Positions 4,884-57,741 of a stretch of DNA of 57,964 nt are shown one piece after another. The notes beneath the pieces are model-generated. The model saw only the letters and a list, made by a program, of their open reading frames with translations. It had not been told where the DNA came from and made no database searches. Each line of letters begins with the position of its first letter. Positions within the stretch are counted from its first letter, which is position 1. The stretch comes from Deltaproteobacteria bacterium. GTDB taxonomy: Bacteria; Bdellovibrionota_F; JAHFAK01. A program made the translations under genes and the position numbers. Location: contig JAHFAK010000002.1 of the NCBI GenBank assembly GCA_023250585.1, forward strand, positions 2,514 to 60,477, given 5' to 3'.

Positions 4884-5693
4884 TTATTTCTTCTGTAAAT
4901 TCTTCAATAACCTTACATAATCTTTTTGGCTTTCATAGACAAGTTCAGCTAGAAAATGGATGAACGGTTTAAAGTCTCCATTGTTTCCTTGGTACACTAC
5001 ATCCAAATATTCACCACGTTTAATCGGCGGAATAATGGTAATCGGATAATTGTTTTTAAAAAGAAAAAGATTCATGAGGAGTCGAGCACAGCGACCATTA
5101 CCATCTATAAATGGATGAATGTTGACGAATTTTGAGTGGACTAGGGCTGCACATTCAACTGGATGTATTTCTTTCTTAAACGAATTTATCTCAGTGATGA
5201 AGCTGTTCATGAGAGAAGGCAGTTCTTTTGGTGCAGGAAAGACAGTATCTCGGCCTGTTACAATAACGCCTACTTTTCGATATGTTCCGGCATTTTTTAT
5301 ATCGATACGATAATAAAAAAGTCTATGAAGTTCCATTATATAATGTTCATCAATCGTGTTTTTCTGAACCAGCGTATACAGTAAATCATAAGCTTCGCTA
5401 TGCCCAAGAGCTTCTTGATGATCACGAATTGGTTTTCCACCGATGGTAATTCCATCTTCAAGAACAATTTTTGTTTCGCTTTCAGTGAGCGAATTTCCTT
5501 CGAGCGCATTACTCGTGTAGGTAAAACTAATGCGATAGTATTCTTTGAGTTGCTTGAGAATTTCTTTATCGAAAGGTTTATATTTTTCTATTTCCTTTTG
5601 GTTGTTAGTAATTTTTTCAAATAAATTATTCATATCTACAAAACGTACCAGATCACATGAGACCATATCAAATGTAAAATAATAAATACTCAT
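4884..5693 (-). CDS. Fic family protein (class II, intramolecular inhibitory helix)
   Basis: Fic core motif HPFIDGNGRCARLL (HxFx[DE]GNGRxxR). The upstream SNALEG matches the inhibitory [ST]xxxE[GN] motif. The ATG at 5633 (MNNLFEK) is an alternative start. Confidence 0.85.
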   Translation of the reverse strand: MSIYYFTFDMVSCDLVRFVDMNNLFEKITNNQKEIEKYKPFDKEILKQLKEYYRISFTYTSNALEGNSLTESETKIVLEDGITIGGKPIRDHQEALGHSEAYDLLYTLVQKNTIDEHYIMELHRLFYYRIDIKNAGTYRKVGVIVTGRDTVFPAPKELPSLMNSFITEINSFKKEIHPVECAALVHSKFVNIHPFIDGNGRCARLLMNLFLFKNNYPITIIPPIKRGEYLDVVYQGNNGDFKPFIHFLAELVYESQKDYVRLLKNLQKK

Positions 5694-5703
5694 ACATGAA
5701 CAC

Positions 5704-5731
5704 TTGACTTCCTCATTTCTTGACTTATAGA
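5704..5731 (+). promoter_or_regulatory. Candidate sigma-70-type promoter of the nuo operon
   Basis: TTGACT (5704-5709), a 16-nt spacer, then TATAGA (5726-5731), about 30 nt upstream of the nuoA ATG. No clear Shine-Dalgarno sequence, so this is weak. Confidence 0.3.
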
Positions 5732-5759
5732 GAGGGTATAACCTAGTATACTCAATGCG

Positions 5760-6143
5760 ATGATTTACGAGTATTTACATATATTTACGTTTATTGCTCT
5801 CTCTATCTTATTAGTATTTGTTACGCTTCTTGTTCAACGGTTTTTAGCGCCTCGTTTTACGAATAAAATGAAATCAAGCACCTATGAATGCGCCGAAGAA
5901 CCGGTCGGCCCGGCATGGATTAATTTCAATGCGCGATTTTATATTATTGCGCTTATATTTATTATTTTTGATGTAGAGATTGCATTTATGTTTCCTGTAG
6001 CAACGAGTTTTTTAAGTTGGGTTCAGCAGGGAAAAGGGCTCATTGCTTTTATTGAGATATTTTTATTCGCATTTGTTTTATTTATTGGCCTTATTTATGT
6101 GTGGGCAAAAAAGGATTTAGAATGGAAAAAAGAGATCACATAG
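5760..6143 (+). CDS. nuoA: NADH-quinone oxidoreductase subunit A
   Basis: 127 aa with three predicted TM helices. ND3/NuoA-like [10 protein letters not shown] motif. First gene of a colinear nuo cluster. Confidence 0.9.
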
Positions 6144-6679
6144 AAACTCGAGAAGAATACAGAACGAAAGAGAATGAAGTCCAAGAATGGAGCGCGTATC
6201 AAAAGCTCTCTGATAATGTTCTTTTTACATCCCTTGATAAAATTTTAAATTTGGGACGAGCAAATTCATTGTGGTATTTGCTTTTCGGAACTGCGTGCTG
6301 TGCAATTGAGCTTATGCAAACTGGTGGGCCTCGTGCTGATCTTGACCGCTTCGGATCAGTCTTTAGACCGACTCCTCGACAATGTGATTTAATCATTATT
6401 GCGGGTACCGTGACTCTTAAAATGGCATCGCGAATAAAAATACTCTACGACCAAATGCCGGAACCAAAGTATGTCATTTCTATGGGAAGCTGTGCAAATT
6501 GTGGAGGGCTTTTTGATCTTGGATATTCAGTGCTGCGTGGCATTGATAAAGTTATTCCCGTGGATGTCTATGTTCCTGGTTGTCCTCCACGACCTGAAGC
6601 ATTGACTGAAGGACTCTTAGTACTCCAGCAGAAAGTCAAAAACGAAAAATTTTTAGTCAAAGAAAAAAAATCAATTTAA
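6122..6679 (+). CDS. nuoB: NADH-quinone oxidoreductase subunit B
   Basis: Cysteine motifs [13 protein letters not shown] and GCPPRPE of the cluster N2 subunit. I chose the ATG at 6122, preceded by AAGGA. The ORF track opens at a GTG at 6101. Confidence 0.9.
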
Positions 6680-6690
6680 AATTATTATTT

Positions 6691-7194
6691 ATGGAAACTT
6701 TACATACAAGATTACAAGAAAAATTTCCCAATGCGCAGGTAACATTTGCAAATCTTGAAGCGGGTGATCATTATATTATTGTTGATACAGCTCATCTTCA
6801 TTCTATTATTTCATATCTAAAAATTGACGAACACTACACGATACTCATGTGTCTTTCGGGTGCAGAAGATTCGGAATTTTTACAATCAGTGTATCATTTG
6901 TTTTCTGAGAGCTCTCGAAAAAAAGTAACTCTAAAAGTAAGATTGCCCAAAGATAATCCTGAAGTTGAAACGATTGGCGATCTTTGGCCAGGAGCTTATT
7001 TTTTTGAACGAGAAGCATATGATCTTTTTGGAATTATCTATAAAAATCATCCTGATTTGCGACGAATTATGCTTCCTGAAGATTGGATAGGGCATCCACT
7101 AAGAAAGAATTATATAGATCCGATACAGTATCAGGATATTAATAATGAACGAGCGTATCCTTGTGATGTTCCAAATGTGACTGAGAAAAAGTAA
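6691..7194 (+). CDS. nuoC: NADH-quinone oxidoreductase subunit C
   Basis: 30-kDa subunit signature FFEREAYDLFGIIYKNHPDLRRI. Separate from nuoD, not fused. Confidence 0.9.
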   Translation: METLHTRLQEKFPNAQVTFANLEAGDHYIIVDTAHLHSIISYLKIDEHYTILMCLSGAEDSEFLQSVYHLFSESSRKKVTLKVRLPKDNPEVETIGDLWPGAYFFEREAYDLFGIIYKNHPDLRRIMLPEDWIGHPLRKNYIDPIQYQDINNERAYPCDVPNVTEKK

Positions 7195-7195
7195 T

Positions 7196-8323
7196 ATGTA
7201 TGAATTAGAAAAAAACAATGATAATACGATGACTCTCAACATGGGTCCGCATCATCCGAGTACACATGGAGTATTACGATTCATTTTGGAGATGGATGGA
7301 GAAATTATTCTCAGCGTGAAGCCTGATGTTGGCTATTTACATCGCTCAATTGAAAAAATTGGTGAACGAGTAACATATCCCGCGTTTATGCCTTATACCG
7401 ATCGTGTTGATTATGTAGCTGCCGCAAATTGTAATGTTGGATATGCATTGGCTGTAGAAAAACTTATGGGTATTGAAACTCCTGAACGAGCTCAGTATTT
7501 ACGTGTTATTGTTTCAGAGCTCAATCGAATCATCAGTCATCTTTTAATGACCGGCGTTCTTGCCATGGACCTTGGCGCATACACGCCTTTTTTACATGCC
7601 GTACGAGAACGAGAAAAAATTAATGATATTTTTGAGATTTTATGTGGAGCACGCCTTACCTATAATTTAGCAACGATCGGAGGCATGCCTTTTGATATTA
7701 AAGAGACAACCATTAGAAAATGTCTAGAAATTTTAGAAGGTTTAAAGAAATTTCTTAAAGAATTTGATGACCTTGTCACCAACAATGCTATTTTTATAAG
7801 TAGACTTGCCAATATTGGAGTCATCGATAAAGAAACCGCAAAAGCATTCATGCTTTCAGGCCCTAATCTCCGTGCAGCTGGGGCTCACTGGGATTTACGA
7901 AAAAACGAAACTTATTTTCTCTATGATCGATTCAAATTTGATATTGCAGTAGGAAGCGGAAAAGCCGGAACCCTTGGAGATTCCTACGATCGTTTTTCAG
8001 TGCGCATGAAAGAGATCGAAACGTCAATTTCAATACTTGAACAAGCATTTAAAAGTCTTCCCAGTGGTGAAGTCCAAGCAAAATTGCCAAAAACATTAAA
8101 GCCTCCAAAAGGTGAAGTATATGTTCGAACTGAAAGTGCGCGAGGCGAACTTGGGTATTACATTATTAGTGATGGCACAGCAAAAGCTTCGCGAATTAAA
8201 ATTAGAACGGGGTCCTTTGCGGCGATTTCAATTCTCGATAAAATTGGTAGAGGTTTAATGTTGAGTGATTTAGTTGCCTTTATGGCAAGCCTTGATTTAA
8301 TTGCACCCGAGATAGATAGATAA
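7196..8323 (+). CDS. nuoD: NADH-quinone oxidoreductase subunit D
   Basis: 49-kDa subunit N-terminus LNMGPHHPSTHGVLR and C-terminal SLDLIAPEIDR. Confidence 0.9.
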   Translation: MYELEKNNDNTMTLNMGPHHPSTHGVLRFILEMDGEIILSVKPDVGYLHRSIEKIGERVTYPAFMPYTDRVDYVAAANCNVGYALAVEKLMGIETPERAQYLRVIVSELNRIISHLLMTGVLAMDLGAYTPFLHAVREREKINDIFEILCGARLTYNLATIGGMPFDIKETTIRKCLEILEGLKKFLKEFDDLVTNNAIFISRLANIGVIDKETAKAFMLSGPNLRAAGAHWDLRKNETYFLYDRFKFDIAVGSGKAGTLGDSYDRFSVRMKEIETSISILEQAFKSLPSGEVQAKLPKTLKPPKGEVYVRTESARGELGYYIISDGTAKASRIKIRTGSFAAISILDKIGRGLMLSDLVAFMASLDLIAPEIDR

Positions 8324-47196: not shown

Positions 47197-48501
47197 TCAA
47201 AAACGCACCGAAGGATCGCCATAAATTTGTGGAGCAAGAAGATTCGTATGAGCTACGGGGCTTAATGGATAATACACATTATCGATATAGTAATTCAGTG
47301 CAGCTGCAAGCGATTCACCGACACTATTGCCACGCAAAATGTATGATCCAACAAGAACCATTTGAGCCGTAATGCCGGGGATGTCTCGAATTGTTGCAAT
47401 AGGGTGTCTCAGATCTTGCTGTTCTATTGGACTTACTTCCTGAGTCGCCGCTAAGTATACAATGACATTATTTTTTAACAGCGCATCAGTAAGTGTTCCA
47501 TTAAAGCTATTGCCATTCGGAGCTCCATTCGAACAGCTTGCCGAAAATAAAACTACGGGAAAAGGATTAGTAATTTTTTTAATTATATCAGGGTGTAAAA
47601 AAGGTTCGCGTCGTGGTTGATAAATGGATGCTGTACTTGGTGATCCATGAGCTAATGTATAGACAAAACCAAAGTCATTTGCATTCCACTGTTCTACCAA
47701 GCTATCTTTGTTGAGAACCACGTCAGCTCCTTGCAATCCTTCTTCATACATTGAAAAAGTTGGAACATCTGCTTTAAAAAATACCATATTGTTTAATGGG
47801 TTAAGTAAAAAACCATTTGAATCAATGGGAAATCGAGACGTATCAATGCGAAGATATGCACGGGTAAAGCTCCCTCCCAAGAGACGAGCTTGTTTTCGAA
47901 AAAAGAGATCAGTACCTTTCATCGTTTCATATTCAATAGTGTTACTTAGAATTTTACTAATGACGCTGCTCTTATCAAATGGAATACGGCCAAGAAAAAC
48001 ATTATGATTATATTTAATATCAGGATCTTCGCCATTGAGACCCCAATTACTTTCGAGATCTTCATAGACTTTGTCAGTAGGAATAGTAATTTCTTCATTG
48101 AAAAAATTATGGCTTTTGAGTTTGAGCATGGGAATTATTTTTGGCGAACCGATGAGAAGAACGTACTCCGTATTCTCTGTATTTTTTTCTTCAATAATAA
48201 AATTTCGAAGTTTTTCTATTTTTTCGATCTCTCTATCTACATTACTATAGATTACATTAAGAGGGATCGCACTAACATTAAATCCAAGGTCTCGTTTATG
48301 ATTTTGAAAATCCTCAGTAAGAGGAATAATGCTTTTATCAGAAATTATTAGATACTGCTTTTGTTCAGTATTTTTTTCAAATTCATTATTTATTTTATCG
48401 AATGAATAACTATCCAAATAATCGTTCAAGCTTGCTTGGCAAGAAATAACAGAAACCAGAAAAATAGAGAGGATAAAATATTTATATACGTTTATGTGCA
48501 T
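47197..48501 (-). CDS. Lipoprotein, possible caspase-fold cysteine peptidase (C25/gingipain-like)
   Basis: Lipobox SVISC. EYVLLIGSPKIIP, TLAHGSP and LFSASCSNG are arranged like a His/Cys dyad. The assignment is tentative. Confidence 0.4.
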   Translation of the reverse strand: MHINVYKYFILSIFLVSVISCQASLNDYLDSYSFDKINNEFEKNTEQKQYLIISDKSIIPLTEDFQNHKRDLGFNVSAIPLNVIYSNVDREIEKIEKLRNFIIEEKNTENTEYVLLIGSPKIIPMLKLKSHNFFNEEITIPTDKVYEDLESNWGLNGEDPDIKYNHNVFLGRIPFDKSSVISKILSNTIEYETMKGTDLFFRKQARLLGGSFTRAYLRIDTSRFPIDSNGFLLNPLNNMVFFKADVPTFSMYEEGLQGADVVLNKDSLVEQWNANDFGFVYTLAHGSPSTASIYQPRREPFLHPDIIKKITNPFPVVLFSASCSNGAPNGNSFNGTLTDALLKNNVIVYLAATQEVSPIEQQDLRHPIATIRDIPGITAQMVLVGSYILRGNSVGESLAAALNYYIDNVYYPLSPVAHTNLLAPQIYGDPSVRF

Positions 48502-48549
48502 GTCTCTTACCTTTATTATCATAAACAAAAAAAGATGCAAGCTTGTAAC

Positions 48550-49848: not shown

Positions 49849-50880
49849 TCATTTCTTTAAAGATATTTCTCCGTTATTGGTTTGGAGCGCAAGGACATTG
49901 TGCGGTTTCCCCAACACAATAAAAAATGATTCCCCATTTTCAGTCATTTGGAATTTTTTCGTGATGTTTTGATCTTGGAAGGGAAAACCGTGTTCGGAAG
50001 TAGCGGTGATCTTAAGTTGGTTTCGGGAATCAAAGTTAATAGTAATATCTCCGTTGTGAGAGATCACTTCTGAATCACCCGTAAAAAGAACATTACGCCC
50101 TTCAAAGCGGCCATTATGGTCTTCTGCCGTTAAAGTTCCTTCGGTATCTTTTAACACAATATCTCCATTATGCCCGTCGATTTTTGCTTTTGTAAATTTT
50201 GTTTTTTCTAATTTAACTTCTCCATTCTGAGAATTAATATCCAATGACGTAATTGTACATTCTTTAATTTTCAAAGATCCGTTATGTGTTGTAATTGTAG
50301 CATCAGGAATCGTTGTTTTTGATACAGTAATGGAACCATTATGGGTTTCAGCCTCAAGTTTTTCAAATCGTTGAGCGTTGTAAGCTTGAGATCCATTATG
50401 TGTCGTAATATCGAGCGCTGAAAATGCTCCTCCGTCAGTTCTGATATATCCATTATGAGTTTCAGCTTCAATATTCATTTTTTCGGGAAGAAGAATTTTG
50501 AATGAAAACCCATAATTGTTTATTTCTCCGCCCACATCTTCGGCATCGTCACGATTTTCATTTGTAGTAACCTCTAGTGATGAGCCAGCAGGTTCTACTT
50601 TAAACGAAAGAGTAGCAAAAATTTTCTTTTGATCTTCGTCTGAAATACTTTTGAGAGTTTCAAAAAATTTAAAGCCACTAATCATAATATCTTCGCGTGC
50701 CTCTGCTTTAAATGTAAAATTGCTGTTATGTCCATCTGCGATAATTTTTTCGAGTGATTTTTTGTCGATCTTTATTTGTTTGATAGGCTCTCGATATTCA
50801 TGCTCATCATCAAAATGCGCTAAGAGCGATGTTGCTGAAACAATGAAGCTCATAAAAAATACAATTAAAATTCTTTGCAT
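49849..50880 (-). CDS. Secreted DUF4097-like beta-strand repeat protein (putative adhesin fold)
   Basis: Nine or more repeats of (E/T)THNG(S/D)I-type motifs. Signal peptide. The ATG at 50880 is preceded by GGAGG. Confidence 0.7.
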   Translation of the reverse strand: MQRILIVFFMSFIVSATSLLAHFDDEHEYREPIKQIKIDKKSLEKIIADGHNSNFTFKAEAREDIMISGFKFFETLKSISDEDQKKIFATLSFKVEPAGSSLEVTTNENRDDAEDVGGEINNYGFSFKILLPEKMNIEAETHNGYIRTDGGAFSALDITTHNGSQAYNAQRFEKLEAETHNGSITVSKTTIPDATITTHNGSLKIKECTITSLDINSQNGEVKLEKTKFTKAKIDGHNGDIVLKDTEGTLTAEDHNGRFEGRNVLFTGDSEVISHNGDITINFDSRNQLKITATSEHGFPFQDQNITKKFQMTENGESFFIVLGKPHNVLALQTNNGEISLKK

Positions 50881-51067
50881 AGGTTCCTCCATAACTTATT
50901 TTTGTTTATTGTATATATTCATAATATCTTACTATACAGCTTGTCTAGACCTTTTACAGGCTTTACTTATTGTATTCATTTTGTATCGAGTAAAGCACAC
51001 TGTTATTTTTGTATATACTATCCACTCGTTAAGTCTTTAATTTTAAACAAATAATTAATGTCATCTT

Positions 51068-51083
51068 TGGTATATAATTTGCA
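51068..51083 (+). promoter_or_regulatory. Weak sigma-54-like -24/-12 motif
   Basis: TGGTAT-ATAAT-TTGCA with GG-N10-GC spacing, 27 nt upstream of the ATG at 51109. The -24 half is weaker than at the other sites. Confidence 0.2.
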
Positions 51084-51108
51084 GAAGTGTACAATTATGG
51101 AGGTCTCT

Positions 51109-51639
51109 ATGGATTATAAAAAAATAGTTTTTTTGTTCGTATTCTCTTTTATGTTCGTCTGTTCATTTTTAGCCCAAACTTTTGCCAGCGAAAATCGAGA
51201 AGAGTCTTCTCAAGAAATTTGTCAGGGCCTTGAATCTTTTCTCCGATTTCATTGGGACAAATATCATCTTAAACCGAATATCCCCAACATTACCTATCTT
51301 AATCTTATTCTGTCTCATTGTAATGCAGAAAAAAATTCTTGGGATTTTGAGTTTAAATATATGTATAGCTATAAAGTCGATTCGTACTCATGTAAGAAAT
51401 GGCATACTCTTCAAGGTGTAAAAGATCCTATTCATCCCGAACGCCCACGTGAGGTTTGTATTGAATACGAACAAGATCAAATACGCGAAGAGTTTACTCA
51501 TGAGATTAAGGTGGATACGAAAAATGAGTATCGATTTTCGTTTGGTAAATCGTACTATAAAAAATATCATGAGATATATGATTGGATAAATAATCTTTTA
51601 AGAGAGTACATAAGAATTAATGAAAAGAATCGAGGATAA
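51109..51639 (+). CDS. Secreted Cys-containing hypothetical protein
   Basis: GGAGG Shine-Dalgarno. Signal peptide FLFVFSFMFVCSFLAQTFA. Confidence 0.55.
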   Translation: MDYKKIVFLFVFSFMFVCSFLAQTFASENREESSQEICQGLESFLRFHWDKYHLKPNIPNITYLNLILSHCNAEKNSWDFEFKYMYSYKVDSYSCKKWHTLQGVKDPIHPERPREVCIEYEQDQIREEFTHEIKVDTKNEYRFSFGKSYYKKYHEIYDWINNLLREYIRINEKNRG

Positions 51640-51668: not shown

Positions 51669-52673
51669 CTACCGTTCCACACATTTTTTAATTTTTTCTT
51701 TAAGGAAACGAGGAGTGCCTGTCCACATGGGAAGATCGTCTCTTATTTTGATACAAAGTTGTTTCGTAGTGTCCGGATCAATTTTTTCTAACGTAGAAAT
51801 TAAGTCTGGGATTAACAAAAAATACAAAAGAGAAGTGTTCCCTCGTTCATTTTTCATGAAGTCCATAGTTTCTTCTAAAAATATATCGATTTTTCTTTCA
51901 TGAAAATTAATCTTAAGCCTTAGCCATTGGAGAAAACGAGGCTGTAGTGCAGTTGTATCAATTAGCGTGTAATAGCCATGCAGTATTTCTTTCAATCCAT
52001 CATTCCATTGATAAGCACTATTCCCTAAAGCCATTTCATGCAAGATTTGAATTGTCATATCTCGTATCAAGCTTGGTTGAATTCTTTTCAAAAAAGATGA
52101 CCCCCATGGTCCTTTGAGGTAGGATATATTAAATACTGATGAATTAAGATACTGTATTGCTTCAATACTGCGGGATAGAGCGCGTGAATAGTTACCGGTT
52201 TTTACATCAATTCTGATTAAATTATGAGCTAGCTGTATTCGATGCATATGTAATAAATAAATACCAAACTTTTCTTCGAGAATGATATCAGCATCATTTG
52301 CTTGAAAGATTATTTGTTGAGCTTCGACAAAATTATTTTCACAATATTTAAAATAAGCTTTTGTTGAACAGAGAGACGATACACAGTGAAGTCGTGCTTG
52401 GAGTCCTAAAAGCCTGAGCCAATATTCAAAATTAGCTTGTTTATAATAAAGCTCTGCTGTCTGTAATTTCTTCTGCCGCGATGCTGTCAGCGCGTGAGCT
52501 GATAAAACCATAATACGTTTACAGATGAGATATTCATTAAGACTCACATTTTTTTTTATGAGTGATCCAGTTTTATCGGAGAAATATGTTCCAGAATAAA
52601 TAACTGATTGTAGAGAAAGCTTGCTACGACTTTCATTATATGCTTGCAGTATTTTTTGTAATGGTATTTTCAT
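51669..52673 (-). CDS. All-helical repeat protein of unknown function, coupled to the radical SAM gene
   Basis: The ATG at 52673 has AGGAG 9 nt upstream and lies 38 nt inside the 3' end of the radical SAM ORF. No signal peptide and no catalytic motif recognised. Confidence 0.6.
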   Translation of the reverse strand: MKIPLQKILQAYNESRSKLSLQSVIYSGTYFSDKTGSLIKKNVSLNEYLICKRIMVLSAHALTASRQKKLQTAELYYKQANFEYWLRLLGLQARLHCVSSLCSTKAYFKYCENNFVEAQQIIFQANDADIILEEKFGIYLLHMHRIQLAHNLIRIDVKTGNYSRALSRSIEAIQYLNSSVFNISYLKGPWGSSFLKRIQPSLIRDMTIQILHEMALGNSAYQWNDGLKEILHGYYTLIDTTALQPRFLQWLRLKINFHERKIDIFLEETMDFMKNERGNTSLLYFLLIPDLISTLEKIDPDTTKQLCIKIRDDLPMWTGTPRFLKEKIKKCVER

Positions 52674-54069
52674 GAATAGATAGCTCCTGAGATACTACAG
52701 TTTCTTCTTGTTTCATTCGAGAGATTGCATAATGAAGAAGGAGTTTTTGTTCAATATTAAATTTTGTAACAGGGCAGGGAATGTATCCCTCGAGCCATTT
52801 TTTTGGACATGCTCCACCGCAGACAGGAAGCATTCGGCAGGTATTACACGGTACTTGTCCTTTTTCTACGAGGGAATAAAAATCGCCAAAAACATTTTGC
52901 TTTCGTTTACCTGGGATCTCTCCATGTTCGAGATGACCAATTGCATATTTATTGGATTGAGATATCCCCGGAATTTTTTCGTATGCTGGAACCTGACTTA
53001 CTTCAGAGCAATCAAAAAGAGTTCCGGTGGCATCAATGAGAATTGCTTTGGGATCAACGGCAAAACAGGTAACTTTTTTTCGCTTAGGCAGTACATTAAC
53101 GTTAAAACCTAATTTATACATTTCTACATACCATTCCATTTCTCGCTCTCCAAATTCAGCTTGAGTAGGAGATGTTTTATCCGCATCATTTCCCCATGAA
53201 TAGACTAAGGTCCAATAGAAGGAGCCAAGGCGTTTCTGTAAATTGTGTTCAGCCAAAAGACGCATGAGTGGAATAACTCCATCCATATTTTCCCAACTGA
53301 CATTGCATCTAATAATAATTTTAAGCTTAATATCCTGAGATTCACAGATTGTGATAATATTATTAAAGATTTTATCAAATGACCCCTGTCCACCTTTTGT
53401 AGGTCTACTCTTATCATGGTACTCTTTTGTACCATCAAGGGTAATATGTACCTCAGTGATATCGAGCTCATCGTATAATTCCCGTGCAACTTCTTTAGTG
53501 ACTAAAACTCCATTTGAGGTTAATCGTCCACTGTAACTGCAACCAAATTGTTGAGCAAGTTCTTTAAATCTTTTTGTTAGTAGACGCATATCATCTAATG
53601 CTAAAAGTGCTTCGGCTCCAAACCATGAAATCAGGACTGATTTCCATTTCCTAGCAGAGAGTCGTTTTTGTAATTCCTCTACTAAAAGATCTTGATGTTT
53701 CTGTGATAAATTTTTTGCGGTATGTTTCTGACCACAATAACCACAGCCTAATTGACATAATGCCGTTGGCTGGATAACCATATACAAATCATCGCTATCG
53801 AGAATTTCGGCTTGATTTTCATTGAGAATGCTTAATAGCTCATTTTCATTTTTTGGCACAAGAATTCTCGTTGAGATAAGATCATCGATAATAGAACGAG
53901 GGATACCTTGAAGTAATCCCTCGTTTACACTATTCCATATATGTGGATCCATTATCCGGACTACTCCATTTCTTGTCCCATATACTATATGTTTTTCATA
54001 GCCATCACGTTCATCATAGATTGGAGTTGAAACTACATATTGAGAAAGTTTGAATAATGAATCAGGCAT
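52636..54069 (-). CDS. Radical SAM/SPASM-domain peptide maturase with an N-terminal RRE-sized extension
   Basis: CQLGCGYC (CxxxCxxC) begins about 105 aa from the N-terminus. C-terminal auxiliary-cluster cysteines are C..(x19)..C and CNTCRMLPVCGGACPKKW...PC (Cx2Cx5Cx3C). GAGGA Shine-Dalgarno. Confidence 0.85.
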   Translation of the reverse strand: MPDSLFKLSQYVVSTPIYDERDGYEKHIVYGTRNGVVRIMDPHIWNSVNEGLLQGIPRSIIDDLISTRILVPKNENELLSILNENQAEILDSDDLYMVIQPTALCQLGCGYCGQKHTAKNLSQKHQDLLVEELQKRLSARKWKSVLISWFGAEALLALDDMRLLTKRFKELAQQFGCSYSGRLTSNGVLVTKEVARELYDELDITEVHITLDGTKEYHDKSRPTKGGQGSFDKIFNNIITICESQDIKLKIIIRCNVSWENMDGVIPLMRLLAEHNLQKRLGSFYWTLVYSWGNDADKTSPTQAEFGEREMEWYVEMYKLGFNVNVLPKRKKVTCFAVDPKAILIDATGTLFDCSEVSQVPAYEKIPGISQSNKYAIGHLEHGEIPGKRKQNVFGDFYSLVEKGQVPCNTCRMLPVCGGACPKKWLEGYIPCPVTKFNIEQKLLLHYAISRMKQEETVVSQELSIHENTITKNTASI

Positions 54070-54092: not shown

Positions 54093-54830
54093 TTATTTGA
54101 TAGACAGGTCTCCTTGATCAACGATAAGTTCAATATTAGAATTTTTATCAGAACACTGAGATGTTGGATATAAGGATATTTTAGGATATGCTTCAATCCA
54201 GGCGTTAATACGTTCGCTTGCTGGAATAGAAATATTTTTTGCTGTCAATACTCCTTGTCCTAGTTCTACTTTTATACAAGGATTCTTTTGTATATGAGTT
54301 GGCTTAAATTCAAGAGATCCCTGTTCAACATGTAGTTGTAACTTACTATTAGCAGTAGTCTCGCCCTTAAATAAAAGAGATCCCTGTTCAACAAGTAAAT
54401 TTGCTTGTAGTATTGAACCTGATAAAAATGTTATCATACCATTTTTAACTTTAGCAGTTAACACTATGTTAGATGGGACTACTATTGCTGCAGTTACCTC
54501 TACGTCTCCACAATTTCCATCAATCTCAAGATTGTTAAGGGTCGGTGTGGCTTTACAGTTATCTAGATTTTTACCTGTAAACCACCCGAGATTAGGTTGA
54601 AGTCGTACTCGATACTTAATCGGACTATCGTTTTCGGTAACTTCATGCTCTAAATCTATTTTTTCATCCGACACCTCTATTCTTAGTTCACCTCTTGTAA
54701 GAGTTACCTCGAGTGATTCTTGACCTTTTTTCAATGGTACCGTTCCACTTATTTCCTTTGCGTAAATTACTGAAGCAGAAAAACAAACGATAAGGCAGAG
54801 AACAATGAGAATGTTTAATCTTTTAACCAT
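54093..54830 (-). CDS. Secreted beta-strand repeat protein (DUF4097-like) inside the RiPP locus
   Basis: Signal peptide LIVLCLIVCFSASVIYA. Repeats VKNGMITF, VEQGSLLF, VEQGSLEF, LGQGVLTA and VDQGDLSI resemble the NG-turn repeats of 49849-50880. Confidence 0.6.
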   Translation of the reverse strand: MVKRLNILIVLCLIVCFSASVIYAKEISGTVPLKKGQESLEVTLTRGELRIEVSDEKIDLEHEVTENDSPIKYRVRLQPNLGWFTGKNLDNCKATPTLNNLEIDGNCGDVEVTAAIVVPSNIVLTAKVKNGMITFLSGSILQANLLVEQGSLLFKGETTANSKLQLHVEQGSLEFKPTHIQKNPCIKVELGQGVLTAKNISIPASERINAWIEAYPKISLYPTSQCSDKNSNIELIVDQGDLSIK

Positions 54831-54883
54831 AACGACCTCCAAATTAATTTATAATGTTTTTGTCATATTCTTAAATTTTCTTT

Positions 54884-54955: not shown

Positions 54956-55243
54956 CTAGCAGCCTGTATTACTAGGACAACCGGAATTGCTTGTACAGCT
55001 GCCCACATTAACTGAGTCTCCATTTATCGGAGAAGTAAAATCTAATTTTTCATAGGCGATAACAGATTCATATACAGCTTTTTGAACCTGCGTGGGTTCT
55101 TTTTTAGTAACTGCCGCATGAGTTGTTTGAGGTAAGACAATTGATCCTAATACAATATTCGCTCCTGCAACAAAGGTCATTAAATGTCGAGACAATCTCG
55201 ATTTTGTTTTCTCAGTTGGTTTGAAAATTTCATTTTTCTTCAT
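54956..55243 (-). CDS. RiPP precursor peptide paralog 3 (core ...NVGSCTSNSGCPSNTGC)
   Basis: 95 aa. Shares the leader blocks LSRHLMTFVAGANIVLGS, THAAVTK and YEKLDFTSP with the two upstream paralogs. Has its own RBS. Confidence 0.8.
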   Translation of the reverse strand: MKKNEIFKPTEKTKSRLSRHLMTFVAGANIVLGSIVLPQTTHAAVTKKEPTQVQKAVYESVIAYEKLDFTSPINGDSVNVGSCTSNSGCPSNTGC

Positions 55244-55280
55244 AATTATGTTCCTTTCTTATTAATGCGTATTTTTATTT

Positions 55281-55565
55281 CTAACAGCCAGTATTAGTTG
55301 GACAACCAGTATTGTGTGGGCAACTGGTATTACCGTCCTCATTATTTACTGGAGAAGTAAAATCTAATTTTTCGTATACATACACTGATTCGAGGACTGA
55401 TTTTTTAGTCAGAATAGTATCTTTGTTTGTAACTGCTGCATGTGTAATTTGTGGGATTGTTAATGATCCTAATACAATATTCGCTCCTGCAACAAACGTT
55501 ATTAAGTGTCTGGATAAGCCAGACTTTTTTTTCTCTGTTAAGTTTAAAGTTTTATTTTCCTTCAT
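55281..55565 (-). CDS. RiPP precursor peptide paralog 2 (core ...NTSCPHNTGCPTNTGC)
   Basis: 94 aa with the same conserved leader blocks. AAAGGAG RBS. Confidence 0.8.
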   Translation of the reverse strand: MKENKTLNLTEKKKSGLSRHLITFVAGANIVLGSLTIPQITHAAVTNKDTILTKKSVLESVYVYEKLDFTSPVNNEDGNTSCPHNTGCPTNTGC

Positions 55566-55601
55566 AATTATACTCCTTTCTTATTCACATATGTCTCTTA
55601 A

Positions 55602-55886
55602 CTAACAGCCTGTATTTTTTGGACAGCCAGTATTAGTTGGACAACCAGTATTACTTTCTTCCTCATGTATTGGAGAAGTAAAGTCTAATTTTTCGTATAC
55701 ATACACTGATTCAAATGTTGATTTTATAACTAAGGAATTGTCCTCCTTTGTAACTGCCGCATGTGTAACTTGAGGTAGTACAAATGTACCCAATACAATG
55801 TTTGCCCCAGCAACAAAAGTCATTAAATGTCGCGATAATTTCGACTTCTTTGTTTCTGGTAGCTCCAAAACTTCATCTTTCTTCAT
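55602..55886 (-). CDS. RiPP precursor peptide paralog 1 (core ...SNTGCPTNTGCPKNTGC)
   Basis: I chose the ATG at 55886 (MKKDEVLEL) because AAGGAG lies 7 nt upstream and it gives the same 94-aa length as the paralogs. The track's extension to 55940 is unsupported. Confidence 0.8.
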   Translation of the reverse strand: MKKDEVLELPETKKSKLSRHLMTFVAGANIVLGTFVLPQVTHAAVTKEDNSLVIKSTFESVYVYEKLDFTSPIHEEESNTGCPTNTGCPKNTGC

Positions 55887-55967: not shown

Positions 55968-56054
55968 AAAGTTATTTCTTGTAATTACTGAATGTTAGAT
56001 GTTTTTGACTTATAGTGATGCAATCAAAAGAAGACATTTTGTCTTCGTCAGTAT

Positions 56055-56172: not shown

Positions 56173-57741
56173 ATGATTTCATTGAAAAGAATATTCATAT
56201 CCCTGATTTTGTTTACTTTGCTTTCATGTTCTTTAAAAAAAATCTCAAAGAACGAATCAAATCCCTGGCAGGAACTTACAAAGAGAGACCTCGCTTTTAT
56301 TTATAAAACTATACTGAACGATCATCCAGGGCCTGTCGATGAACTTAATCCAGATTTTAAAATTTGGCTTGAGGAAGGATATAAAGAAGCTTTAAAACGA
56401 ACTGAAGAGGTTACAAGTTTTGCAGGTTATGTATATCTCCTTCGCTATTATGTTAATGGCTTTCAAGATGGTCATGTGTATATCAACTTTAAACTTGAAC
56501 GAGAGAATTTAAACTGGTCAGGATTTCTAGTTGCATATCAAAATGGAAAATTTCTAGTTGAATATGTTGATAGCAGTGGAAGTTTTGCAAAGCTTCCAGA
56601 AATTAATGATGAACTTGTAAGTTGTAATGATATGAAGCCTATGGATTTGATGAATAAAAATATTTTTCCTTTTCAAGGAATTCATGAACTTGAAGCCGAA
56701 TTGTTTCGATTTGCTCCACTTCTCTTTGTATTTGATGGAAATCCATGGGCAGAGTCTTTAGATACCTGTGTATTTAGATCAGCAAAGAATAAAGAATATT
56801 TTCTGTCTCTTGAGAAACGACCAATAGGAAATACTCAGATTTCTGCTCTCATTGACCAAATTAGAGGAGTTCCAGATAGGACATTTACTAGTACGAAATT
56901 TGGAAATAATTCAGTATGGATTAAACTTCCTTCTTTCGATCCAAAGGGAAATAGTGAATTACTACAAATGCGTTCACTTATGCAAACAATAGAACAAGAG
57001 AAAGAAATGTATAGAAAGAGTGATATGGTTGTATTTGATGTTCGAGGAAATAGTGGAGGAAGTTCGGTATGGGGCCAAAAAATACTCATGAATCTTTATG
57101 GAGAAAAATATGTGCGATATAAATCAACTCAAAATTTTATATCGAACTATAATGTTCATGCCTTATGGAGAGTTTCTCCGAGCAATTATAATTACCATCT
57201 CACCGAAACACTTCCTGAGTTAGAACGTAATTTTGGTCCTGATTCTGAGGCATATAAAGAGTATACAGATCTTGCTGAGCAAATGAAACAAGCCCTTACA
57301 AAAAATATTCAATTAATTCGAGAAGGCCAGGATGAAAATACTCTTAAAAGAAAAGCAAATGAGGCTAAACAGAGCATTATTGTTGGTGATAATCTTAATC
57401 AAGCACAAGTATTCTTATTGACTGATTCACGTTGTGGAAGTGCCTGCCTTGATTTCTGTGATATGTTGTTTCGGGTTGATGAAAAACTAATTCACGTAGG
57501 GCATCCAACCAATGCTGATACTGTATATCTAACAATAAAATATGATACTCTTCCAAGCGATATTGCATATATCACAGTACCAAGAAAACTTTGGCGCAAC
57601 CGACCTCGTGGTCACAATGTAGCTTATATACCGAAGTATCGTTGGGAAGGTGCAATTGGTGATACTGAAGCACTTCAAAAATGGATTATTGAAATAGCTA
57701 CAAGAAAGAAAGATACCGTCGTTACGAAGGATAATAAATAA
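56173..57741 (+). CDS. S41-family (C-terminal-processing/tail-specific-like) serine peptidase lipoprotein
   Basis: Lipobox FTLLSC. S41-like blocks VVFDVRGNSGGS and TDSRCGSACLDF. GAGGAGG Shine-Dalgarno. Confidence 0.65.
   Translation: MISLKRIFISLILFTLLSCSLKKISKNESNPWQELTKRDLAFIYKTILNDHPGPVDELNPDFKIWLEEGYKEALKRTEEVTSFAGYVYLLRYYVNGFQDGHVYINFKLERENLNWSGFLVAYQNGKFLVEYVDSSGSFAKLPEINDELVSCNDMKPMDLMNKNIFPFQGIHELEAELFRFAPLLFVFDGNPWAESLDTCVFRSAKNKEYFLSLEKRPIGNTQISALIDQIRGVPDRTFTSTKFGNNSVWIKLPSFDPKGNSELLQMRSLMQTIEQEKEMYRKSDMVVFDVRGNSGGSSVWGQKILMNLYGEKYVRYKSTQNFISNYNVHALWRVSPSNYNYHLTETLPELERNFGPDSEAYKEYTDLAEQMKQALTKNIQLIREGQDENTLKRKANEAKQSIIVGDNLNQAQVFLLTDSRCGSACLDFCDMLFRVDEKLIHVGHPTNADTVYLTIKYDTLPSDIAYITVPRKLWRNRPRGHNVAYIPKYRWEGAIGDTEALQKWIIEIATRKKDTVVTKDNK

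Follow-up and report, generated by a model that had tools for sequence, protein, structure and literature searches.

Signal-peptide-like leaders on the precursor peptides paired with a radical SAM/SPASM maturase in a deltaproteobacterial genome

Precursors of peptides made by ribosomes and modified after translation (RiPPs) normally pair a cytoplasmic leader with a dedicated transporter. Only for the MNIO-modified bufferins has export by the general Sec pathway been demonstrated, and their authors call it rare (PMC11626156, PMC12452194). Bufferins are modified in the cytoplasm and then exported by Sec (PMC11626156); both they and the oxazolins are modified by MNIO enzymes, carry Sec signal peptides, have no dedicated exporter and yield a periplasmic product, and the kind of partner protein correlates with the presence of a signal peptide on the precursor (PMC11626156, PMC12452194). 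Here we describe a cluster of three small precursor genes and a radical S-adenosylmethionine (SAM)/SPASM maturase in a stretch of 57,964 nucleotides from a Deltaproteobacteria bacterium (contig JAHFAK010000002.1 of assembly GCA_023250585.1; the whole stretch is referred to below as the window). For the three precursors, Sec-type export followed by cleavage is the explanation that we favour, with slightly better than even credence.

The Sec-exported bufferins are the closest precedent for this system. Like the bufferins and oxazolins, the window combines Cys-containing precursors and predicted cytoplasmic modification with the lack of a dedicated exporter nearby (export itself being predicted here). 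The window enzyme, however, is a radical SAM/SPASM protein rather than an MNIO (DUF692) enzyme with a DUF2063 partner, and because NCBIfam and Pfam scans found neither MNIO/DUF692 nor DUF2063 domains in the cluster, we do not count the system among the bufferin group. It differs further in that the core, rather than being a folded small protein, consists of a short N-x-x-C repeat at the C-terminus, and in that a leader of full length remains behind the predicted signal peptide and the cluster includes an exported peptidase.

Other described systems share single features with the window. The streptococcal NxxcA/NxxcB system is regulated by quorum sensing and uses a conventional leader. Its radical SAM enzyme forms beta-thioethers that join Cys to Asn in NxxC motifs (PMC9389541). 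The repeated N-x-x-C core and a radical SAM/SPASM enzyme are common to both systems (a likeness of motif and of enzyme class), whereas the reviews consulted describe no signal peptide for NxxcA/NxxcB and the window precursors have signal-peptide-like N-termini. CteB/SCIFF and PapB, which are ranthipeptide/sactipeptide maturases, have the same arrangement of N-terminal RiPP recognition element (RRE), radical SAM core and SPASM domain as the window enzyme, but the leaders in their systems are cytoplasmic. The cytoplasmic radical SAM/SPASM enzyme anSME modifies Cys or Ser of signal-peptide-bearing sulfatases before their export by Sec or Tat (the twin-arginine translocation pathway). It thus resembles the window in the action of such an enzyme on a signal-bearing substrate before (in the window, predicted) export; it differs in its full-size enzyme substrate, in the reaction catalysed (oxidation to formylglycine) and in the absence of a leader or propeptide and of a crosslink. 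In the QhpC/QhpD system, a radical SAM/SPASM enzyme again introduces Cys thioether crosslinks, here into a small subunit destined for the periplasm. The leader of QhpC is not a signal peptide; it is removed by QhpE, and export depends on the dedicated ABC protein QhpF and not on general secretion. A preliminary description of the window, made from its letters and open reading frames (ORFs), had invoked this last analogy, a weak one (the maturase reaches 53 bits where the QhpD cut-off is 453 bits); the bufferins and the anSME/sulfatase pair are better analogies.

Three precursors and their leaders

The three precursor ORFs (Table 1) are tandem paralogues on the minus strand with a mutual identity of 63-65%, at a distance of 0.9-1.8 kb upstream of the maturase gene. 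About 8 nt upstream of each there is a ribosome-binding site, AAAGGAG or AAAGGAA, which fixes the starts as MKK or MKE; a 112-aa extended version of the first ORF is unsupported, the ribosome-binding site pointing to the 94-aa start. As expected of radical SAM/SPASM RiPP precursors, they are small ORFs near an RRE-bearing maturase and share a Cys-containing core motif with the substrates of orthologous enzymes. From the N-terminus, each consists of a basic region of 20 aa, block 17-33 (L17-S-R-H-L-(M/I)-T-F-V-A-G-A-N-I-V-L-G33, in which only position 22 varies, between M and I), a variable hydrophobic continuation, P38-Q39, T41-H-A-A-V-T46, 17 residues that are for the most part variable, Y64-E-K-L-D-F-T-S-P72, a short linker of variable sequence and the three N-x-x-C motifs. 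Invariant among the paralogues are K14, S15, L17-L21, T23-G33, P38, Q39, T41-T46, E59-V61 and Y64-P72, as well as the N and C positions of the core. The alignment confirms the conserved features reported in the preliminary description, including the Lys-rich n-region (the N-terminus is basic in all three paralogues), and revises several of its counts: the residue before LSRHL(M/I)TF (position 16) is R, G or K rather than K or G; the hydrophobic stretch is there, with an uncharged core of 17 aa (L21-L37) rather than 18; YEKLDFTSP follows THAAVT after 17 residues, four of them invariant, rather than after about 25 variable ones; a product beginning after THA would be 51-52 aa long rather than about 45; and the NxxC repeats stand, except that an inserted Ser in paralogue 3 makes its first motif N-V-G-S-C (NxxxC).

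We assessed the N-termini by classical rules on charge, hydropathy and cleavage site. The n-region (residues 1-20) has a net charge of +2, +4 and +5 in the three paralogues. The h-region (L21-L37) comprises 17 uncharged residues, within the expected length of about 7-17, with a mean Kyte-Doolittle hydropathy of 2.0-2.1; Gly, Ala, Asn and Thr are frequent in it, in contrast to the Ile, Leu and Phe that abound in the other signals of the window. The c-region, P(-6)-Q-x-T(-3)-H-A(-1)↓A-V (the arrow marks the predicted cut), is invariant in the three paralogues. Small neutral residues occupy positions -1 and -3, a helix breaker falls between -4 and -6, and there is no Pro between -3 and +1; T-H-A↓A-V thus reads as a canonical signal peptidase I site.

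Selection on the leader was evaluated by a codon-level comparison of the three paralogues (ratio of nonsynonymous to synonymous divergence, pN/pS, by segment). Synonymous divergence (pS) is about 0.5-0.6 along the whole precursor gene, indicating that the duplication of the paralogues is old, that recent gene conversion or constraint at the nucleotide level cannot account for the invariant blocks, and that selection acts on the protein. The pN/pS ratio is 0.45 in the n-region (residues 1-16), 0.03 in LSRHL(M/I)TFVAGANIVLG (17-33), 0.66 in the second half of the h-region (34-40), 0.00 in THAAVT (41-46), 0.51 in the variable segment (47-58), 0.12 in ESV..YEKLDFTSP (59-72), 1.44 in the linker (73-79) and 0.32 in the core (80-95). 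Three leader blocks (17-33, 41-46 and 59-72) are under functional constraint, and the strongest constraint in the leader is found where the basic region joins the first half of the hydrophobic stretch.

The maturase family and its leader types

In the AlphaFold model of the maturase (mean predicted local distance difference test score [pLDDT] of 89.3, from an alignment of 46 sequences), residues 1-91 form a domain of beta-strands and helices of RRE type. The SCIFF thioether synthase CteB is the top full-length match, both by Foldseek and by sequence profile, at an identity of only 16-17%; ChlB, TigE, anSME and SuiB rank below it among the structural matches. The maturase falls below all of the NCBIfam curated cut-offs (score/cut-off in bits: TIGR04463 194/525, CefB 141/600, geopeptide 141/400, PapB 90/340, SCIFF 49/425, and QhpD as given above), as do the maturases of two relatives (L005 and L008), and the maturase, its relatives and their precursors belong to no curated family. 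There are 282 homologues of the maturase at E ≤ 1e-10; among the 120 matches listed, identities are 41-52%, and cyanobacteria, Planctomycetes and Caedibacter are represented.

We compared the window with orthologous maturase loci, 9 genomic and 80 metagenomic (35-47% identity); for three close maturase homologues (P0005, P0006 and P0009) the contigs are not long enough for precursors to be seen. Of the approximately 70 loci in which a precursor was found, nearly all have a core of N-x-x-C motifs, most of which take the form N-[TSNG]-[GS]-C. The leaders in front of them fall into several classes: the Gly-Gly leaders of Bacteroidetes, a helical 'AKLSLDxAV' type (as at the loci of the close maturase homologues P0008, P0011 and P0019), 'FGRLVI', 'EELExRLEM', 'AFFDKNGxCG' repeats, and a signal-peptide type. 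The last is found in cyanobacteria (L005, L006, L036, L041-44 and L114; an example is MSTNRIHNLKCLLGFLALTSVAALTPVAEA, with the predicted cut before KPP), in Holosporales-type loci (L007, L054/55 and L064/65; a Holosporales/Caedibacter-type example is MKNYLAIISAAGIVTMAEA, cut before LSS) and in a deltaproteobacterial metagenome-assembled genome (MAG; L018; MKPINEKLVQLLLASGVAVVAQTSLA, cut before SDQ). The leader type (Gly-Gly with an ABC exporter, one of several cytoplasmic types, or signal peptide) thus differs by lineage, with the core motif and the enzyme unchanged. An unbootstrapped neighbor-joining tree of the maturases places the window together with the signal-peptide loci of Holosporales type and puts the cyanobacterial signal-peptide clade elsewhere, beside cytoplasmic-leader loci; on this tree, signal-peptide leaders occur in at least two maturase clades. 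The distance from the predicted cleavage site to the first N-x-x-C motif is 27-69 aa (median 43.5) in the signal-peptide-type precursors, as compared with 33-54 aa (median 47) for whole leaders of the cytoplasmic classes. Because a leader of normal length is left behind the cleavage site, the signal peptide looks like an addition in front of the leader, not a replacement for it.

Lined up by eye, YEKLDFTSP resembles 'AKLSLDSP' in L036 and the AKLxLDxAV of the other class (an AKLSLD-type leader motif is also seen in L036/L041), which had raised the idea that the window block is a diverged AKLSLD motif. That idea was rejected as unsupported: no match came from a hidden Markov model of the motif, and an ungapped profile, compared with shuffled sequences, yielded p = 0.56, 0.14 and 0.84. 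The role of YEKLDFTSP as a recognition sequence, put forward in the preliminary description, is still a guess.

Exporters were surveyed in loci with at least 6 kb of flank. A C39-ABC exporter is present in 12 of the 15 Gly-Gly-leader loci and in none of the 10 signal-peptide-type loci (Fisher p = 0.001 for signal-peptide loci versus Gly-Gly plus LEM loci; p = 0.006 after dereplication). In the window, NCBIfam and Pfam scans found no transporter gene from 39.8 kb to the window end; the absence of a dedicated transporter noted in the preliminary description therefore holds for the approximately 15 kb downstream of the precursor genes. Upstream of them the peptidase gene alone falls inside the window, and in the same organism beyond the window end (L001 184-420) a fragment of a HepT-like toxin gene lies past the peptidase gene, indicating that no exporter is located immediately on that side.

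The peptidase in question, S41/CPAF-like and divergently encoded, is a candidate periplasmic leader peptidase. Homologues with 35-36% identity are found downstream of the maturase and partner genes in two relatives (L038 and L039), indicating that it is part of the system. Neither of these copies carries a signal peptide, whereas the window copy has an additional N-terminal lipoprotein signal (MISLKRIFISLILFTLLSC). The precursor leader in L039 is of the cytoplasmic, non-signal type, and the search of L038 found no precursor; in these few cases, the predicted compartment of the peptidase appears to match that of the precursor.

The window locus and its relatives suggest that the same Sec solution arose in a radical SAM/SPASM family. 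We found no radical SAM/SPASM RiPP with a Sec signal peptide in the literature searched, the coverage of which is incomplete for subscription journals. The maturase family is large and uncurated, and the N-x-x-C cores of its substrates are constant and their leader type variable; with leaders that vary against a constant core and enzyme, the family amounts to a natural experiment on how the export routes of modified peptides evolve. Genome-mining tools that drop small signal-peptide ORFs would overlook such precursors.

Several relatives show further peculiarities. The Holosporaceae MAG locus L007 (4752-5192) encodes a 146-aa precursor in which a signal peptide is followed by three repeated modules, each ending ...GLN(L/S/K)(S/G)C(S)xN(R/K/S)(G/S)CHA(P/T)G(P/S)E, that is, a multi-core precursor. 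At L018, two overlapping ORFs of 271 and 224 aa take the place of a single maturase frame (5980-7394), which may reflect a frameshift or an assembly error, and the signal of a second precursor (5612-5983) ends in a lipobox-like ...SSFAC. At two AKLSLD-type loci (L120 7535-9937 and L123 7429-9894) the maturase is followed by a ThiF-YcaO fusion protein of 800-820 aa, which suggests a hybrid thioether/azoline-type pathway acting on N-x-x-C cores. Five Bacteroidetes loci (L008, L009, L063, L075 and L076) encode a second, smaller radical SAM protein of about 390-405 aa upstream of the Gly-Gly-leader precursors, and L008, L012, L063 and L075 additionally encode a protein of about 1025-1046 aa; these would represent additional tailoring steps that the window does not have.

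A model of modification and export, and its rivals

Beyond the sequence features, the selection acting on them, the maturase's fold and family and the comparative pattern, all of which are shown above, we infer export, two cleavages, the chemistry and the order of events as follows. The leader would be composed of two parts, a cleavable Sec-type signal peptide (residues 1-43) and a propeptide of ordinary length (44 to about 78), ahead of a core made up of the last 17 or so residues with their three N-x-x-C motifs. Recognition and modification would take place in the cytoplasm, as the modelled fold of the maturase suggests: the RRE-bearing, CteB-like enzyme would bind the free precursor there, probably with the 334-aa helical partner, and would then crosslink the Cys residues, the likely product by analogy with NxxcB being Cys-S to Asn-C-beta thioethers in rings of four residues. 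The peptide, still linear and carrying only small rings, would be exported post-translationally through SecYEG, signal peptidase I would remove residues 1-43, and the S41-like lipoprotein peptidase would trim the propeptide in the periplasm, where the secreted beta-protein is a likely partner. The weak hydrophobicity of the h-region would favour slow, post-translational targeting of the SecA type, which would give time for modification. The model poses a mechanistic question, in that an oxygen-sensitive cytoplasmic enzyme must outrun Sec targeting, and the conserved, weakly hydrophobic h-region offers a direct handle on this race.

A number of observations weigh against this model. The predicted signal peptide is 43 aa long with an n-region of 20 aa, whereas signal peptides typically measure about 18-30 aa and have short n-regions, those of the relatives measure 19-30 aa, and the other signals in the window, all much shorter, have n-regions of about 2-10 aa (at the likely true starts); its h-region is also less hydrophobic, with a mean hydropathy of 2.0 as compared with 2.0-3.2 for those other signals. 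The h-regions of signal peptides usually drift freely, and the sequence-specific selection on residues 17-33 exceeds the needs of export alone. Because a generic signal peptide requires no such constraint, these residues must have some additional or different role, either in binding a second sequence-specific partner (the maturase RRE, the 334-aa helical protein or a chaperone) or in making specific membrane contacts. The absence of an exporter is not in itself diagnostic, given that a C39-ABC exporter is found in none of the nine loci of the other cytoplasmic-leader classes either. The match between peptidase and precursor compartments is drawn from one exported and two cytoplasmic copies, with no precursor at L038, and the S41 assignment of the window copy is weak: it scores 20.4 bits for PF03572, below the gathering threshold of 24 (as does the L038 copy at 21.2; the L039 copy, at 25.6, is above), it matches the CPAF model with E = 6.5e-8 yet far below the cut-off, and its profile finds no match in the PDB. 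Finally, a word-indexed search of 5.8 billion proteins and a full HMMER scan of 1.84 billion representatives both returned only the window's own three precursors, so that their leader cannot be compared directly with others. The Sec and signal peptidase I route already proposed in the preliminary description is supported in part: the presence of all three signal-peptide parts, the signals of the relatives, the lack of a nearby exporter and the export signal of the clustered peptidase speak for it, with the comparison between loci weighing most, but the length of the signal and the constraint on residues 17-33 do not fit.

One possible, if rather unlikely, account of that constraint is that the signal peptide doubles as the recognition sequence, with LSRHLxTFVAGANIVLG, at the n/h boundary, bound by the RRE or the partner and the export signal masked from SecA or the signal recognition particle until crosslinking is complete, after which release would pass the peptide on to Sec. 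If this is true, masking would be a built-in checkpoint by which radical SAM modification is coupled to general secretion, and would account for an h-region conserved to the same degree as the enzyme, in the window (pN/pS 0.03) as well as in the cyanobacterial subgroup, where identity is 64% in the h-region, 68% in the enzyme and 33% in the rest of the precursor.

We are doubtful that the hydrophobic stretch is instead an uncleaved signal anchor, with residues 21-40 as an N-in/C-out helix and a periplasmic tail of about 55 aa ending in the crosslinked repeats. The uncharged stretch around the h-region does span 26 residues (L21-T46), a long and strongly basic n-region suits the positive-inside rule, and the strong selection on the first half of the h-region, with its invariant Asn29 and with Gly27 and Gly33, would suit helix-helix packing. 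However, a crude Hessa-scale sum over 19 residues of the h-region, a segment that holds Gly, Asn, Pro and Gln, comes to +5.2 to +5.5 (the other signal and membrane segments in the window give -2.4 to +4.7, save two at 8.2 and 10.1), and hydrophobicity this low favours a cleavable signal over a stable membrane anchor. An invariant helix breaker and a canonical -3/-1 site come right after the segment, the signals of the signal-peptide-type relatives are short, classical and cleavable, and the cluster encodes an exported peptidase.

To a leader that acts in the cytoplasm only, its hydrophobic block serving recognition by the RRE or the partner and the product either staying inside or leaving by an exporter encoded elsewhere, we likewise give little credence. 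The basic n-region, the 17-aa uncharged stretch and P-x-x-T-H-A↓A would engage SecA or the signal recognition particle in any case; the extreme N-termini of the relatives are unmistakable signal peptides; both an exported peptidase and an exported accessory protein are encoded in the cluster; and a leader of normal length is still present behind the signal peptide. Set against these points are the tight constraint on residues 17-33, the cyanobacterial identities just given, which form the pattern expected of a recognition sequence, and the several other leader classes that also have no exporter nearby.

Tat export of the already crosslinked peptide, brought up by the likeness of SRHLMTF to the Tat consensus in the preliminary description, is highly improbable even though the n-region is long, the h-region is moderately hydrophobic and rich in Gly, Ala and Thr, a conserved S-R-H-L motif lies at the n/h boundary and the route would fit a substrate modified before export: the defining R-R pair of (S/T)-R-R-x-F-L-K is R-H in all three paralogues (S-R-H-L-(M/I)-T-F), the L-(M/I)-T-F after the pair misfits x-F-L-K, the c-region (P-Q-x-T-H-A) has no Lys or Arg to act as the basic 'Sec-avoidance' residue, no twin arginine occurs in the precursors of the signal-peptide-type relatives, and thioether rings of four residues would be small enough to dispense with Tat.

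Accessory proteins and neighbouring genes

Table 1. Positions of the precursor genes, their parts and the associated genes in the window
Feature	Positions	Strand	Description
Precursor paralogue 1	55602..55886	-	94 aa; from the ORF list and the AAAGGAG ribosome-binding site upstream of MKKDEV
Paralogue 1, signal-peptide-like residues 1-43	55758-55886		Followed by the propeptide and three C-terminal N-T-G-C motifs
Precursor paralogue 2	55281..55565	-	94 aa; from the ORF list and alignment
Paralogue 2, signal-peptide-like residues 1-43	55437-55565		Followed by the propeptide and three NxxC motifs
Precursor paralogue 3	54956..55243	-	95 aa; from the ORF list and alignment
Paralogue 3, signal-peptide-like residues 1-43	55115-55243		
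Paralogue 3, invariant block 17-33	55145-55195		
Paralogue 3, YEKLDFTSP	55028-55054		
Paralogue 3, core (residues 79-95)	54959-55009		One NxxxC and two NxxC motifs
S41/CPAF-like serine peptidase	56173..57741	+	522 aa; divergent; lipoprotein signal MISLKRIFISLILFTLLSC
Secreted all-beta protein	54093..54842	-	245-249 aa; signal peptide ...CFSASVIYA↓KE; between precursors and maturase
Radical SAM/SPASM peptide maturase	52636..54069	-	477 aa; N-terminal RRE-like domain (residues 1-91); CteB-like fold
Helical partner protein	51669..52673	-	334 aa; weakly TPR-like; 38-nt overlap with the maturase gene
Second secreted DUF4097 toastrack protein	49849..50892	-	347 aa; 70 bits; LiaX/LiaG-like; two genes past the partner

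In 19 other loci, from several leader classes, the gene directly downstream of that for the maturase encodes a homologue of the 334-aa partner. In an alignment of the window protein with those of L008, L009, L012, L038, L039, L042 and L118, an H-R-x-Q-x-x-H-N motif is invariant (H144, R145, Q147, H150 and N151). Searches of Pfam, NCBIfam and the PDB assigned the protein to no family and gave marginal TPR matches only; it may be an uncharacterised RiPP accessory protein or a second enzyme.

The secreted beta-protein is a likely periplasmic partner. In the Holosporales-type loci, too, a secreted protein is encoded between precursor and maturase genes, and there it is a DUF4097 'toastrack' protein. 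Assignment of the window protein itself to the toastrack fold was considered and not adopted. The 249-aa protein scores 13.5 bits for PF13349 (DUF4097), below the threshold of 22.9 (its positional equivalent in L054, at 30.2 bits, is above); hhalign gave no significant match to the Holosporales toastrack proteins; and a single-sequence AF2 model has a pLDDT of 45, too low for use of the fold, so that the argument from position and clade is what remains. The link of the second toastrack protein, encoded farther downstream, to the cluster is uncertain.

In the 286-nt divergent intergenic region between the precursor 1 and peptidase genes, upstream of the precursor operon, a run of T follows a 7-bp inverted repeat without mismatches, GAAGACA-aaa-TGTCTTC (56030-56046, minus strand); the repeat may serve as an operator or form a small regulatory hairpin. 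No RNA genes came up in Rfam and tRNA scans covering the window. The best matches of its NuoL are only about 54% identical and come from Nitrospirota, Dadabacteria, Bdellovibrionota and 'delta' MAGs, which fits an uncultured, probably diderm, bacterium of a deep-branching lineage. The surroundings of the cluster are rich in envelope proteins: positions 51058-51639 encode a secreted protein of 193 aa, and just past the cluster, at 47197-48540 on the minus strand, lies the gene for a lipoprotein cysteine peptidase of the C25 (gingipain) type (100 bits).

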